NCBI GenBank assembly: GCA_963697675.1
Contig: CAVOOW010000010.1
Location: 73,230-137,229 of the forward strand
Source of the DNA: an uncultured Actinomycetota bacterium
GTDB taxonomy: Bacteria > Actinomycetota > Actinomycetes > JACCUZ01
DNA length: 64,000 nt
Direction of reading: 5' to 3'
In this document: positions 437-57,639 of the stretch, piece after piece
Layout of the letters: each line of letters starts with the position of its first letter
How positions within the stretch are numbered: the first letter of the stretch is position 1
The notes under the pieces: generated by a model
Told to the model about the DNA's origin: nothing
What the model saw: the letters and a program-made list of their open reading frames with translations, nothing else
Databases searched by the model: none
Translations under genes and position numbers: made by a program

Positions 437-1960
437 CTCGGCTGCAGCCACGATCTCTTCCAGCGCGGCGTCGACCGCTGCGATCTGCACGGCGACGTTG
501 CGGTCGGTGTCCATCGTCGGGACGTCGCGTCGGACCACTGCGTGGACCGCGGTCCCACCCGGGCTCGGCGACGCGACCGCGGCGCGGAAGTCCAGCGCCT
601 GGCAGGCGACCAGGATCTCCACGGACAGCACCGAACGCACGTTGGCGACGACCTCGCGCAGCTTGCGCATTGAGGTCCAGCCCATCGAGACGTGGTCCTC
701 CTGGTTGCCCGACGTCGGGATCGTGTCGACGCTCGCGGGATGGGCGAGCACCTTGTTCTCGCTGACCAGAGAGGCCGCGGTGTACTGCGCGATCATGTAT
801 CCCGAGTTGGTGCCGGGGTCCTTGGCGAGGAATGCCGGCAGGCTGCGACTGAAGGCCGGGTCGAGCATGCGGTCGGTGCGCCGTTCGGAGATGCTCGCGA
901 GCTCGGAGACCGCCATCGCGAGCATGTCGCCCGCGAAGGCGAGCGGCTCGCCGTGGAAGTTGCCCGTCGACATGACCTCGCCGTCCGGCACGATCACCGG
1001 GTTGTCGACGACCGAGCCGAGCTCGATGTCGATGACGCCGCGGGCATGCGCGAGCACGTCGCGCACGGCGCCGTGCACCTGGGGGGCGCAGCGCAGCGCG
1101 TAGGAGTCCTGCACCGCGTGGTCGCTCTCCCGGTGGCTGGCCACGAGCGGGGAGTTGGCCAGCAGCCGGCGCAGGTTGCTCGCGCTCGCGAGCTGGCCGG
1201 GATGCGGCCGGATGACCTGGACCCGCTCGTCGTAGGCGCGGTCGGTGCCCATCAGCGACTCGACGCTGAGCGCCGCAGCGATGTCCACGACCTTGACCAG
1301 CAGGTTGATCTCGTCGATCGCCAGCGCCAGCAGGACCTGCATCGGCTCGGTGCCGTTGATCAGGCTGAGCCCTTCCTTCGCGGCCAGGACAAGGGGCTCG
1401 AGCACCTCCTCTTTGAGCAGTTCCGCCGCTGGCCGTCCGGTGAGCTCCTCCCCCGCGCGGCGCAACCGGCCCTCGCCGACGAGCGGCTGGGCCAGGTGGG
1501 CGAGCTGGCAGAGGTCGCCGCTGGCGCCGACCGAGCCCTTGCCGGGGATCACCGGGAGCAGGTTGCGCTCGAGCATGTCGAGCAGCCGTTGTGGCAGGGC
1601 GGTGCGTACGCCGCTGTAGCCGACGGTGAGGGTTCGCGCGCGCAGCAGCAGCAGTCCGCGGACCACGTCGTCGGGCAGCGGCTCCCCCACCCCGGCGCTG
1701 TGCGAGCGGATCAGCGCGAGCTGCATGCGCTCGAGGTCGCCACGGCCGATGTGGGTGTCCGCGAGGGCGCCGAACCCGGTCGTGATGCCGTACATCACCT
1801 TGTTCTTCTCCACGGCGTCGCTGACCACCGCCCGGCTCGGCTGCATCCGGGCCTCGACGCCGGCCCCGAGCTCGGCCCGGGCCTCGCCCTTGGCCACGGC
1901 GACCAGGTCTTCGAGCGTCAGGGCTTCGCCGGTCACGGTCACAGTGCGCATGGCGGGCAA
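413..1960 (-). CDS. hutH: Histidine ammonia-lyase
   Basis: 515-aa ORF with the MIO-forming motif GSVGASGDLCQLAHLA and overall HAL/PAL-family similarity along its full length. Confidence 0.9.
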   Translation of the reverse strand: MPAMRTVTVTGEALTLEDLVAVAKGEARAELGAGVEARMQPSRAVVSDAVEKNKVMYGITTGFGALADTHIGRGDLERMQLALIRSHSAGVGEPLPDDVVRGLLLLRARTLTVGYSGVRTALPQRLLDMLERNLLPVIPGKGSVGASGDLCQLAHLAQPLVGEGRLRRAGEELTGRPAAELLKEEVLEPLVLAAKEGLSLINGTEPMQVLLALAIDEINLLVKVVDIAAALSVESLMGTDRAYDERVQVIRPHPGQLASASNLRRLLANSPLVASHRESDHAVQDSYALRCAPQVHGAVRDVLAHARGVIDIELGSVVDNPVIVPDGEVMSTGNFHGEPLAFAGDMLAMAVSELASISERRTDRMLDPAFSRSLPAFLAKDPGTNSGYMIAQYTAASLVSENKVLAHPASVDTIPTSGNQEDHVSMGWTSMRKLREVVANVRSVLSVEILVACQALDFRAAVASPSPGGTAVHAVVRRDVPTMDTDRNVAVQIAAVDAALEEIVAAAEAAIGGLA

Positions 1961-2160
1961 CCTAGCGCTCGGCGGCCCGGCCCGACACGCCCGGTCTCGC
2001 CCTCACCTGGTGTCACCTTGTTGTGCTTGGGCTTGGGGGCGATGCTCGGGTACGTCGACTGTGGCCTGCGTCACGGGCATGGACTGCCTTTGAAGCGGTC
2101 CGGATCGATGGGCTATGGTCTACTTCCGCACATCGGGGCAGTTCATTGCGCCGTTGTCGC

Positions 2161-2233
2161 GCGGACGTGGCTCAGTTGGTAGAGCATCACCTTGCCAAGG
2201 TGAGGGTCGCGGGTTCGAATCCCGTCGTCCGCT
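2161..2233 (+). tRNA. tRNA-Gly (anticodon GCC)
   Basis: Cloverleaf gcggacg...cgtccgc with anticodon loop cttGCCaag and T-arm ggttcgaatcc. Confidence 0.85.
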
Positions 2234-2266
2234 CGAAGAGGCCTGGGAGGTTGTTCGGCCTCTCTC

Positions 2267-2337
2267 GGTGGAGTGGCCGAGAGGCGAGGCAACGGCCTGC
2301 AAAGCCGTCCACACGGGTTCAAATCCCGTCTCCACCT
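2267..2337 (+). tRNA. tRNA-Cys (anticodon GCA)
   Basis: Acceptor ggtggag/ctccacc, anticodon stem acggc/gccgt with loop ctGCAaa, T-arm cgggttcaaatcccg. Confidence 0.8.
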
Positions 2338-52308: not shown

Positions 52309-53301
52309 GTGGAATACCTCGGCATCGTCATCGTCATCGTCACGGCGATGGGGTTCAACTACACCAACGGTTTCCACGATGCCGCGAACGCGATCGCCAC
52401 CTCGGTCTCGACCCGGGCGCTGACCCCGCGGGTGGCGCTGGGCATGGCTGCCGTGTTCAACCTCATCGGCTCGTTCCTCGGCGCCAAGGTCGCCAAGACC
52501 GTCGGCGAGGGGATCATCGAACTGCCGAACGGCACGGACAGCCTTGTCGTCGTTTTCGCCGCGCTGATCGGCGCGATCTCGTGGAACCTGCTGACGTGGT
52601 ACTTCGGGCTGCCGTCGTCCTCCTCACACGCCCTGATCGGCGGGCTGATCGGCGCGGCCATCGCGTCGAGCAGCACGATCTTCTGGCAGGGGATCTACGA
52701 CAAGGTCCTCATCCCGATGGTCGTGTCGCCGATCGTCGGCCTCGTGCTCGGCTACTTCGTGATGGTGGCCATCCTCTGGCTCTTCCGGAGGGCGAGCCCG
52801 TCCCGGGTCTCCCGCGGCTTCCGACACGCGCAGTCGGTGTCGGCCGCTGCCATGTCGCTCGGGCACGGCATGCAGGACGGCGCGAAGACGATGGGCGTCA
52901 TCGTGCTCGCCCTGAACGTTGGCGGCTTCCAGGACGATTTCGAAATCCCGATCTGGGTGTTCTTCATGACCGCCGCGGTGCTCGCCGCTGGCACCTACGC
53001 CGGTGGCTGGCGCATCATGCGCACGCTGGGCCGGCGCATCATCGCGCTCGATCCGCCGCACGGCTTCGCCGCTGAGTCCACGGCCTCCAGCATCCTGTTC
53101 GTCGCCGCCATCGGATACGGCGCACCGATCTCGACCACACAGACGATCACTTCGGCGATCATGGGCGTCGGCGCGACGAAGCGGCTCAAGGCTGTGCGCT
53201 GGGGAGTGGCCGGCAACATCGCCGTAGCCTGGATCTTCACCCTCCCCGGCTCCGCCGCGGTCGCCGCCGTCAGCTACCTGGTCGTCAACCTCTTCGTCTA
53301 A
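52309..53301 (+). CDS. pit: Low-affinity inorganic phosphate transporter (PiT/PHO4 family)
   Basis: GFNYTNGFHDAANAIATSVSTRAL...GANDGAKTMGVI-like motifs. Confidence 0.85.
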   Translation: MEYLGIVIVIVTAMGFNYTNGFHDAANAIATSVSTRALTPRVALGMAAVFNLIGSFLGAKVAKTVGEGIIELPNGTDSLVVVFAALIGAISWNLLTWYFGLPSSSSHALIGGLIGAAIASSSTIFWQGIYDKVLIPMVVSPIVGLVLGYFVMVAILWLFRRASPSRVSRGFRHAQSVSAAAMSLGHGMQDGAKTMGVIVLALNVGGFQDDFEIPIWVFFMTAAVLAAGTYAGGWRIMRTLGRRIIALDPPHGFAAESTASSILFVAAIGYGAPISTTQTITSAIMGVGATKRLKAVRWGVAGNIAVAWIFTLPGSAAVAAVSYLVVNLFV

Positions 53302-53429
53302 GCCTCCCTCCCCCTCTTCCAAGTCGATCACCCCTCCCCTTTCAAAGTCGATCATGCAGTAACCGACATGCCCTCGCATCGCCGCAGGCCAGCGCGCTGC
53401 ACTTAGAAGTCGATCATGCAGTAACCGAC
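53302..53429 (+). repeat. Left compound inverted repeat of the DUF559 element
   Basis: cctccctcccc...ccaagtcgatca...cccctcccctttcaaagtcgatcatgcagtaaccgac (x2). Reverse-complementary to 54518..54660. Confidence 0.65.
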
Positions 53430-53522
53430 GAGGCCTTGCCGGCGGTGCCTCGCCGCGAGCCGCCGGGCGCAGCCTGTGGAGAACTCCGCGGTCGAAAGCG
53501 CGGCATCGACCACCCTTGACTT

Positions 53523-54533
53523 GTGTCGACGTACTGCGCAGTTTTTGGCACCGCGCCCTTCACGTTGCGTGACGCGAAGGCTGTGGGGTGGTCGCAGAGA
53601 GATCTCCGAGGTTTCGTACGCGCCGGGCTCATCAGACGGGTGCTGCACGGCGTGTACGTCGACGCGACTGTCGACGATGACCTGGCTTCGCGGGCGGCCG
53701 CCCTCGCCAAGGTTGTGCCGAGCGGGGACGTGATCTGCTTGCGTACGGCAGGCTGGCTGTGGAGCGCTGACGTGTTGCCGATCGGCGCGCATCGCGAGAT
53801 TCCTCCCGTGGATCTCATGGCGCCGAGTGGCGCTGCTGGACCTCGCCGCGCCGGCTGTCGCGGCCGGACAGGACCAATTGCTTCGTACGACATGATGAAT
53901 GTGCAGGGCGTTCTCGTTACCCCACCGGCGCGAACCACCGCCGACCTGCTGCGGCTGCTCCGGCGACCAGATGCCCTGGCGGCCGGGGACGCCATGCGTC
54001 GCGCGACCGGGGTCGAGCCCACTGCCGTCGCCGAGGTGCTAGATCGCTTCCGAGGGCAACGCGGTGTCGTGCAGGCGCGCGAGCTGCTCGAGCTCTCCGA
54101 CCCGCGCGCCGAGTCGCCGCAGGAGAGCCGCACCAGGCTGCGTTGCGTCGATGCGGGGTTTCCGTGCCCGGAGCCGCAGATCGAGGTGTTCGACGCGGCC
54201 GGGGAGTTTCTGGCGCGCCTCGACATGGGCTATCGCAAGGAGCGCAAGGCTCTCGAGTTCGACGGGGCCGAATATCACTACACGCTCGAACGGGTGCGCC
54301 ACGATCAGAGGCGCCGCGAAGCAGTCGAGCGCGTGGGTTGGGCAGTCAGCGTGGTCACCACTGAACACGTCTTGGGCCGTGGGCTTGTCTTTGAGAGGGT
54401 CGTGTCCGAGTTGCTAGGGGTGGTGCCGCGACTGACCCGCCACCATCCGCGGTACGGAGGTTGGGACGTCGGTGAGCCGTCGTGGCCAACGGTCCGAGGT
54501 GCTCGACATGGCGCAATGTCGGTTACTGCATGA
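53523..54533 (+). CDS. DUF559 / AbiEi-like domain protein (REP13E12-type repeat protein)
   Basis: C-terminal EVFDAAGEFLARLDMGYRKERKALEFDGAEYHYTLERVRHDQRRREAVERVGWAV (DUF559). Confidence 0.6.
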   Translation: MSTYCAVFGTAPFTLRDAKAVGWSQRDLRGFVRAGLIRRVLHGVYVDATVDDDLASRAAALAKVVPSGDVICLRTAGWLWSADVLPIGAHREIPPVDLMAPSGAAGPRRAGCRGRTGPIASYDMMNVQGVLVTPPARTTADLLRLLRRPDALAAGDAMRRATGVEPTAVAEVLDRFRGQRGVVQARELLELSDPRAESPQESRTRLRCVDAGFPCPEPQIEVFDAAGEFLARLDMGYRKERKALEFDGAEYHYTLERVRHDQRRREAVERVGWAVSVVTTEHVLGRGLVFERVVSELLGVVPRLTRHHPRYGGWDVGEPSWPTVRGARHGAMSVTA

Positions 54534-54660
54534 TCGATTTCTATATGCGGGGCGCTGACCTGCGGCGATCGGAGGGCATGTCGGTTACTGCATGATCGAC
54601 TTTGAAAGGGGGAGGGCGACTTTGAAGGGGGGAGGGGCGACTTTGAAAAGGGGAGGGCTG
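54518..54660 (+). repeat. Right compound inverted repeat of the DUF559 element
   Basis: gtcggttactgcatgatcga (x2) followed by cgactttgaaagggggaggg (x3). Confidence 0.65.
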
Positions 54661-54668
54661 GGGGAGGG

Positions 54669-55448
54669 TTAGCCGAAGCGGCCGGTGATGTAGTCCTCGG
54701 TGGACTTCTCGGTGGGTCGGCTGAACATCTCCGAGGTCTCGCCGATCTCGATCAGCTTGCCGGGCTTGCCGGTCCCCGCGATGTTGAAGAACGCAGTTGT
54801 GTCACTGACCCGGGCAGCCTGCTGCATGTTGTGGGTGACGATGACGATCGTGTAGCTGTCCTTGAGCTGGCCGATCAGGTCCTCGATGGCCAGGGTCGAG
54901 ACCGGGTCCAGCGCGGAGCAGGGCTCGTCCATGAGCAGCACCTGTGGCTCCACCGCGATGGCCCGGGCGATGCACAGACGCTGCTGCTGGCCACCGGACA
55001 AGCTGGAGCCGGGCCGCTCGAGCCGGTCCTTGACTTCCTCCCACAGGTTCGAGCCGCGAAGTGACCGCTCGACGAGTTCGTCGAGTTCCTTCTTCTTTAT
55101 CTTCGCGTTGTTGAGCTTCATCCCGGCGGCGACGTTCTCGTAGATCGACATGGTCGGGAACGGGTTGGGTCGCTGGAACACCATGCCGATCTGGCGACGG
55201 ACCTGCACCGGGTCAACGCTGGCCTCATAGAGGTCCTGCCCGTCCATCAGCACCTTGCCCTCGACGCGGGCCTTGGGGATCACCTCGTGCATCCGGTTCA
55301 GGGTGCGCAGGAACGTCGACTTGCCGCAGCCGGACGGGCCGATGAACGCCGTCACGCTCTTCGGTTCAACGACCATCGAGACGTCCTCCACAGCGAGGAA
55401 GTCGCCGTAGAAGATCTTCAGGTCCGAGATATCGATGCGCTTAGCCAC
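54669..55448 (-). CDS. pstB: Phosphate ABC transporter ATP-binding protein
   Basis: Walker [10 protein letters not shown], signature LSGGQQQRL, and the PstB-specific N-terminus. Confidence 0.9.
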
Positions 55449-57512: not shown

Positions 57513-57639
57513 GGCACTGGCTGCTTCCTCGGTTGGAGATCGTGGACGTTCCGGCGATCATGCACAGCGATTGGTCCGGGTGGCCACTGCCGTGACCACC
57601 CGGACCATGTCGGGCTGACCAGCCCGACGAAGCCGCTCG

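Follow-up and report, generated by a model that had tools for sequence, protein, structure and literature searches.

The 64,000-nucleotide stretch of DNA analysed here (hereafter the window; positions 73,230–137,229 of contig CAVOOW010000010.1, from an uncultured Actinomycetota bacterium) carries a cassette that fills the whole space between the convergent phosphate transporter genes pit and pstB, and in which two long inverted-repeat arms surround a gene for an AbiEi-Vsr nuclease. This cassette is a REP-like palindromic element that has a nuclease gene, and not a RAYT gene, in its middle, and the two may represent a new enzyme-plus-repeat partnership. We tentatively favour, with confidence a little short of even, a resident, vertically inherited and occasionally lost cassette, in which the boxes iterated within the arms are putative binding or cleavage sites of the protein encoded between them.

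Organization of the cassette

The stop codon of pit ends at position 53301 and that of pstB occupies positions 54669–54671 (minus strand), which leaves 1,367 bases between them and sets the limits of the cassette at 53302–54668. An inverted-repeat-bounded cassette with a gene between these two convergent stop codons had been proposed in the initial annotation and was confirmed by a repeat search of the window; its start was placed correctly, while its end, given there as 54660, lies 8 nt further on. The arms returned by the search are 102 nt long, 89% complementary and separated by 1,088 nt. All four exact copies of the 20-mer GTCGGTTACTGCATGATCGA in the window (chance expectation 0) fall within the cassette, two of them on the minus strand (53348 and 53410) and two on the plus strand (54518 and 54580), with a spacing of 62 nt inside each arm. 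On the right side, the G-rich unit CGACTTTGAAAGGGGGAGGG is found in three tandem copies (54597–54658) and has a single mirror copy on the left (53331–53350), where the tandem unit is C-rich and 24 nt long (53307–53330 and 53331–53354). The repeated end sequences reported initially needed correction, as the 37-nt string given twice for the left end is not duplicated in full (only AAGTCGATCATGCAGTAACCGAC occurs twice) and the inner right copy ends in GATCGAT, not in GATCGAC. The sole long open reading frame with coding character in the cassette (53523–54533, plus strand) encodes 336 amino acids; two exact 21-bp boxes are situated 94–176 nt upstream of its start codon, and its stop codon falls within the inner right box.

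Domain structure and evolution of the AbiEi-Vsr protein

Pfam recognised AbiEi_4 (PF13338) at residues 13–46 of the 336-residue protein with 28.7 bits, above the cut-off, and REase_MTES_1575 (PF18741) at residues 232–280 with 22.5 bits, below the gathering cut-off of 38.2. PF04480 was not reported by Pfam for this protein; both PF18741 and PF04480 are on record for its homologues, which are annotated as AbiEi_1, AbiEi_4, MTES_1575 or DUF559 and also carry PF09407. The AbiEi models of PADLOC matched residues 13–208 (best E-value 9e−13). In an AlphaFold model built on 40 homologues (mean predicted local distance difference test score 86.8), the N-terminal ~200 residues of the predicted structure were matched by Foldseek to the AbiEi antitoxin of Streptococcus agalactiae (6y8q, E-value 1e−6) and the last ~100 to the catalytic domain of the Vsr-like homing endonuclease I-Bth0305I (3r3p, probability 0.99, template modelling score 0.64), while a profile search gave a weak match to the Vsr chains 1vsr and 1cw0 (E-value 0.27). 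All 40 homologues retain the acidic catalytic residues D234, E245 and D247, which belong to the RLDMG...EFDG motif. The AbiEi-like domain first noticed in the sequence is therefore borne out by PF13338, PADLOC and the 6y8q match, and the suspicion of a Vsr fold by the C-terminal domain, which is of Vsr type according to the 3r3p match and the weak Vsr profile match.

The gene is under purifying selection, with a ratio of nonsynonymous to synonymous substitution rates of 0.16–0.20, similar to those of pit and pstB, and is therefore functional. Its GC content at third codon positions is 0.75, compared with 0.91–0.92 in pit and pstB, and its synonymous divergence is about twice that of pit/pstB for the same genome pairs; the two together indicate a weaker codon bias, typical of an accessory gene. 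The combination of an AbiEi DNA-binding part with a Vsr/DUF559 nuclease is widespread (161 cluster representatives at an E-value of ≤ 1e−30 and 3,445 at ≤ 1e−10), and a literature search on DUF559 together with AbiEi found no paper.

Orthologous loci and vertical descent

The host is an uncultured soil actinobacterium of Solirubrobacterales-like type and not a mycobacterium; its nearest named relatives are metagenome-assembled genomes classified as Solirubrobacteraceae, Solirubrobacterales or 'Actinomycetota bacterium'. An orthologue of the nuclease gene was found at 12 further loci, seven of them obtained from protein look-ups (L001, L002, L004, L019, L021, L023 and L129) and five from a DNA scan of metagenome contigs (L079, L098, L106, L116 and L120), with protein identities from 91% down to 51–60%. 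Wherever the contig was long enough, the gene was situated between pit and pstB in the same direction as pit, and the order pstB-pstA-pstC-pstS was kept in the relatives. Four types of the gene, with 51–60% mutual identity, can be told apart among the orthologues, and their divergence parallels that of Pit and PstB but is faster. The window itself contains one copy of the gene and one pair of arms, with no other family member. A single copy at the orthologous position in all relatives had been named initially as the mark of an old resident, and most of this picture was found (a single copy in the window, the same site and orientation in every gene-bearing relative), the departure from it being two relatives in which the site is empty.

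Horizontal transfer was considered for L129 and L023, which disagree in protein identity, and was rejected, as the loci are 81–87% identical in DNA throughout and the disagreement arises because L023 is an error-prone assembly. The orthologue of L106 (141–1105) is split over two reading frames, owing either to a frameshift that made it a pseudogene or to an error of sequencing. At L002, an additional gene of 283 amino acids (1475–2326, minus strand) with a weak RIO1-kinase-like match (E-value 9e−5) is placed between the left arm and the nuclease gene, and the same arrangement probably exists at L120, where the arms are 2.0 kb apart; in this sub-lineage the cassette can therefore hold two genes.

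Empty sites

The initial annotation had proposed looking for relatives with an empty pit-pstB junction, and two clean ones, without gene and arms, were found among Pit-anchored loci. At L127, only CCCGGG (6 nt) separates the stop codons of pit and pstB, and at L128 the distance is 45 nt; no GATCATGCA was present in the 13 kb available for each. In the occupied loci (7–13 kb), every GATCATGCA is within the two arms, on the plus strand in the left and on the minus strand in the right arm. Gene and arms are jointly present in 13 loci and jointly absent in two. L127 is nested in the occupied clade (its PstB is 94–96% identical to those of the window, L001 and L002, its Pit 92% identical to that of L004), and L128 adjoins the occupied L021 and L129 (PstB 89–90% identical). 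This nesting among occupied lineages implies that gene and arms were cleanly lost, or gained, together on at least two occasions, so that the cassette is, as far as these sequence comparisons reach, gained or lost as a unit. The CCC/GGG of L127 resembles the base of the C-rich/G-rich stem and fits a deletion of the whole inverted repeat, although the direction of the change is unprovable. A strain-level insertion polymorphism between L001 and L127, which bear neighbouring contig numbers from one sample, was also considered and rejected, since their flanks are only ~85% identical.

A dispersed family of arms

Metagenome contigs were scanned with the pattern GATCATGCA-N(18–32)-GCAGGTCAG-N(12–28)-GATCATGCA, which was matched by 103 contigs, all from soil or rhizosphere samples. 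Five of these are unrelated tandem arrays, five represent the pit/pstB locus and the rest have the arms in other contexts, in which no relative of the nuclease gene was found. As the arms belong to a dispersed family, the compound inverted repeat of the window is one instance of a palindromic intergenic repeat family; the earlier view of the repeats as the ends of the cassette had to be given up, because they are not private to it and copies of the family stand beside many unrelated genes. No Rfam match to the region and no description of the arm family were found, and the family is apparently undescribed. The five unrelated arrays (L029, L080, L115, L117 and L121) consist of long runs of ~50–60-nt units (GGGATCATGCAGGTCAGGAAAGTCAT...) that matched the pattern by chance and are outside the family.

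In an alignment of 82 arms, the succession is a C-rich tract, CTTCAAAGTC, a box, ~25 nt, CATCGCCGCAGGTCAGCGCCCCG, ~19 nt and a second box; nearly every arm in the family has a C-rich tract in front of it. Their outer edges are often short tandem arrays with units of ~7 to 24 nt that contain CTTCAAAGTCGA and a C-run; these minisatellite-like edges (53307–53354 and 54597–54658 in the window, as well as L062, L073, L078, L083 and L088) vary between loci. The arms are found predominantly at gene ends: 52 of 73 lie 6–73 nt past the stop codon of a gene reading into the arm, and the next gene downstream is convergent in 46 cases and co-directional in 24. The genes upstream are diverse, with 62 Pfam families among 43 proteins, and no shared functional theme was found among these 43. 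About 40 contigs have two arms, 78 nt to 2.6 kb apart (start to start), which face each other and are never back to back, the exceptions being same-strand tandem or duplicated arms in L091, L108 and L114. Short facing pairs take up the entire space between the stop codons of two convergent genes, and longer ones have ordinary genes between them (SDR, HAD hydrolase, LysE, cupin and others). At one locus, represented by L095 (711–1886, minus strand) and L124 (190–1320, minus strand), a NERD-domain gene (PF08378, E-value 6e−17; 377–392 amino acids) is located between facing arms ~1.3 kb apart, i.e., a second nuclease-type gene inside a palindromic element of the same arm family.

When the rest of the window and ~115 kb from the other gene-bearing loci were scanned with the arm profile, neither contained another arm. 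The idea that exact copies of the box are dispersed in GTDB species genomes was considered and rejected, as the counts are at chance level: the 18-mer CGGTTACTGCATGATCGA had 14 matches in 185,579 species genomes, and the sole real match among these genomes was one solo exact box (GTCGATCATGCAGTAACCGACGA) at L005:6410–6436, in an uncultured Solirubrobacterales metagenome-assembled genome (CAVWRC010000016.1). This solo box is in an unrelated context, near an open reading frame resembling a LuxR-type (GerE-family) response regulator. The 5-mers found 4–8 nt after the box (304 distinct boxes in the loci examined) include CTTGG (58), CCTGG (19), GTTGG (20) and ACCGA (32). In Escherichia coli, the Dcm/Vsr mismatch context consists of CCWGG and CTWGG, and CTTGG and CCTGG are curious beside a gene for a Vsr-type nuclease, even though they may reflect ordinary C-to-T change.

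Similarity of the arm pairs at nuclease loci

The left and right arms at ten nuclease loci are 82–91% identical, compared with 73–92% (mean 79%) for 24 other facing pairs and 73–82% for other pairs at the same spacing of 0.9–2.6 kb (Mann–Whitney p = 7e−5). Of 10 variable positions, the two boxes of an arm share 8.0 at nuclease loci vs. 5.75 in dispersed arms (p = 0.001). Moreover, the left and right arms of one genome resemble each other more closely than either resembles its orthologue in a sister lineage; the arms of the window, for instance, are 84% alike and only 57–60% like the arms of its 91%-identical relative L079/L098. These statistics on arm pairs and boxes all point in the same way, though they are inflated by shared descent.

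Features of the region

The features of the cassette and its two neighbours are collected in Table 1. A 333-kb NCBI/ENA contig encodes a protein (P0121) that is 100% identical to Pit. The lead of the right arm is G-rich on the plus strand and hence C-rich in the pstB transcript. A consensus scan for promoters and terminators found no sigma-70 match and no terminator-like site. In the leader of the nuclease gene, all four gene types keep TGTGGA(G/T)A ~40–50 nt before the start codon (e.g., in the window, L001, L004, L019, L021 and L129), while the remaining leader differs; it may be a promoter or regulatory element. A solitary GATCATGCA at 57556–57564 (plus strand), intergenic between pstS and pstC, antisense to the pst operon and without other arm features, is probably a chance match.

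Table 1. Coordinates of the cassette features and of the two flanking genes in the window
Feature	Position	Strand	Description
pit (PHO4-family phosphate transporter)	52309–53301	+	Pfam PF01384, E 4e−93; stop codon is the left cassette boundary
Left-arm C-rich lead	53302–53346	+	24-nt tandem units, overlapping the start of the first box
Left arm	53328–53429	+	Inverted repeat, exact 20-mers; nhmmer arm-profile match at 53339–53428, 71 bits
Left-arm box 1, GTCGATCATGCAGTAACCGAC	53347–53367	+	
Left-arm box 2	53409–53429	+	
Left-arm spacer between boxes			41 nt; carries a degenerate GCAGGCCAG motif
Leader, inner left box to start codon	53430–53522	+	93 nt; contains TGTGGAGA at 53474–53481
Nuclease gene	53523–54533	+	AbiEi-type winged helix, AbiEi C-terminal domain and Vsr/I-Bth0305I-type (DUF559/MTES_1575-like) nuclease domain
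Right arm	54518–54619	−	Mirror of the left arm; boxes at 54518–54538 and 54580–54600; nhmmer match at 54519–54608, 74 bits
Right-arm spacer			Carries a CGCAGGTCAGCGCC motif
Right-arm lead	54597–54668	−	Three tandem 20–21-nt units (54597–54658), then CTGGGGGAGGG
pstB (ATPase of the PstSCAB phosphate transporter)	54669–55448	−	PF00005, E 2e−32; stop codon is the right cassette boundary

Possible explanations

In the resident accessory cassette that we favour, the palindromic element is made up of two arms that face each other and together fill the pit-pstB gap; a C-rich lead, a pair of GATCATGCA boxes and a conserved spacer are present in each. The central gene would encode a sequence-specific DNA-binding nuclease. 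The four iterated 20–21-bp boxes would be binding sites of this protein, which is the most economical reading because characterised AbiEi-family proteins, its homologues, bind repeat sets at their own promoters (PMC7319586). The upstream pair of boxes could then provide autoregulation, while binding and nicking or cutting at both arms may provoke inter-arm repair, by which the arms would stay alike at the pit-pstB locus in particular. Finally, the long inverted repeat would make the whole unit prone to hairpin-mediated deletion, and this would explain the clean empty sites. A number of observations weigh against such a cassette: the co-occurrence of gene and arms rests on two empty sites, and the loci are related by descent, so that the p-values given above overstate their independence. 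The arms follow the rule of their family, just downstream of a gene reading in (52 of 73), and as the genes reading into them here are pit and pstB, they could belong to these two and not to the central gene. Facing arms elsewhere enclose nothing or ordinary genes, so that arms need no nuclease gene in cis, and in L002 and L120 another gene separates the left arm from the nuclease gene.

In the main rival explanation, the arms would be independent REP/BIME-like 3'-end elements of pit and pstSCAB, with candidate roles as bidirectional terminators, Rho-loading sites or mRNA-stabilising elements. The inverted repeat would then arise only because two convergent genes each have an element of this type, and the nuclease gene would be an unrelated passenger; the orientation rule of the arms and their dispersed copies are accounted for in this way. 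The family occurs after unrelated genes in ~90 other contigs, with the spacing past stop codons and the predominance of convergent over co-directional neighbours described above; empty facing pairs fill entire convergent intergenic regions, ordinary genes are found between pairs elsewhere, and the arms remain beside pit and pstB when the extra gene is present. We nevertheless regard this explanation as rather unlikely, since it leaves unexplained the joint presence or absence of gene and arms (13 occupied vs. two empty loci) and the extra uniformity of arm pairs and boxes, even at equal spacing. The consensus scan gave no terminator-like site and Rfam no match, and, with no further arm in ~115 kb of gene-bearing loci, two of them here by chance would be improbable. 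Another reading, which we consider doubtful, makes the AbiEi-Vsr nuclease the trans partner of dispersed GATCATGCA-box elements, in the manner of REPINs and RAYTs but with a completely different enzyme class; the protein would bind and nick or cut the boxes, and elements with facing arms would thereby be spread or maintained at the 3' ends of genes across the whole genome.

An active site-specific mobile or homing cassette, with the inverted repeats as its ends, the nuclease as its mobility enzyme and repeated insertion between pit and pstB, would account for the clean empty sites in close relatives, for the resemblance of the nuclease domain to the homing endonuclease I-Bth0305I, for arrays of repeated sites at each end, as in some transposons, and for the lower third-position GC content of the gene. 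It is improbable, however, as there is one copy in the window and always the same site, the divergence of the gene tracks that of the flanks (the incongruence of L129 and L023 being an assembly artefact), and the box 18-mer is at chance level in the GTDB species genomes. Flanking direct repeats or target-site duplications were not found, the outer flanks being inverted (C-rich vs. G-rich), and no known transposase domain was recognised. Neither the protein nor the arm had relatives among phages, plasmids or viral contigs; against 50,697 phage records the arm gave one 33-nt match, which is not meaningful, and none in viral contigs. Of the small mobile or recombinogenic element suggested by the initial annotation, the behaviour as one unit and the two empty junctions therefore stand, whereas active mobility is poorly supported, given the one site, the one copy and the parallel divergence. 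The arms could also act in RNA, as a 5'/3' duplex enclosing the mRNA of the gene or as a structured 3' untranslated region on the pit and pst transcripts; as pit and pstB are convergent, both transcripts would carry nearly the same ~100-nt sequence past the stop codon, and the arms could pair across the gene. This we hold to be very improbable, as all three signs of it that were sought had to be rejected. RNAalifold paired only the columns fixed by the search pattern, without covariation; a hand-proposed hairpin with the box in its loop was 55% paired vs. 54% in shuffled controls and no better than slid controls; and 60 of 110 left/right mismatches are transversions, with wobble-compatible changes (27 vs. 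23) not enriched on either strand. The likeness of the two arms is therefore not due to selection for pairing. The lack of an Rfam match points in the same direction.

Implications

For one member of the large AbiEi-Vsr family, the pit-pstB locus offers a concrete candidate DNA target in the form of the flanking 21-bp boxes. To our knowledge, a long-lived partnership of a repeat and an enzyme is so far known only for REPINs and RAYTs, and action of the protein on dispersed copies, if it takes place, would mean that such a partnership had arisen a second time independently. A repeat family would thereby also be described in the soil Thermoleophilia-like actinobacteria, a poorly studied group. 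If there is no such action, the locus would still show that inverted repeats around a gene can be mere arms of a common intergenic palindromic element, and that such elements can be lost cleanly with their contents.

Comparison with known systems

The initial annotation had likened the cassette to mycobacterial REP13E12-type repeats, an analogy that fails, as the cassette comes from an organism outside the mycobacteria, has its gene once in the window, encodes other protein domains and gave no phage match. REP13E12 encodes 13E12-family proteins of the HNH/DUF222 type, whereas Pfam recognised nothing in the cassette protein beyond AbiEi_4 and a weak MTES_1575. In Mycobacterium tuberculosis, REP13E12 is a paralogous repeat in multiple copies (Rv0094c/95c, Rv1587c/88c, Rv3466/67 and others) that has a putative prophage attachment site (PMC13061034). 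It has several paralogous ~1.4-kb copies per genome, as opposed to one gene and one pair of arms in the 64-kb window, and the likeness is limited to the ~1.4-kb size and a repeat-associated gene in an actinobacterium.

Transposons and insertion sequences with terminal inverted repeats differ from the cassette, which has neither direct target-site duplications nor a recognisable transposase. With free-standing homing endonuclease genes it shares occupied and clean empty alleles of one site (L127 and L128), but the divergence of its gene is parallel to, and not incongruent with, that of the host flanks. The catalytic-domain fold match (3r3p), the weak Vsr match and the conserved acidic residues relate the protein to the Vsr/DUF559/I-Bth0305I (EDxHD) endonucleases; in contrast to these, the gene has no intron or phage association and no adjacent cytosine methylase, and the protein scores below the MTES_1575 gathering threshold (22.5 vs. 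38.2). The AbiE type IV toxin-antitoxin system has in common with the cassette the two-domain AbiEi fold, found here in the N-terminal ~200 residues, and repeated ~20-bp sites upstream of the gene, as at AbiEi-family promoters (PMC7319586). Nevertheless, the cassette lacks an adjacent AbiEii (DUF1814 nucleotidyltransferase), its neighbours being pit and pstB in all loci with the RIO1-like extra gene in L002/L120, its protein has a fused nuclease domain, and its repeats form a direct pair on either side of the gene, each the mirror image of the other, instead of an inverted pair inside the promoter.

The REPIN/RAYT systems consist of a single-copy, largely vertically inherited enzyme gene flanked by inverted copies of a dispersed short repeat, and these repeats are extragenic, often inverted doublets and often situated at gene 3' ends or between convergent genes (10.1101/2022.05.22.493013; PMC3337134). 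RAYT is a tyrosine (HUH) transposase of the IS200/IS605 type, while the cassette protein combines an AbiEi-type binder with a Vsr-type nuclease; REPs are short palindromes of a few tens of bases, while the cassette arms have ~90–130 nt and two direct boxes each. REPIN repeats number tens to hundreds per genome and are present only where the gene is; the arms are few in the gene-bearing DNA available, with none in ~115 kb outside the cassette. What the cassette shares with REPIN/RAYT is a repeat dispersed outside genes, often as inverted pairs and often at 3' gene ends or between convergent genes, and a gene that is single copy in the window, largely vertically inherited and flanked by inverted copies of this repeat.

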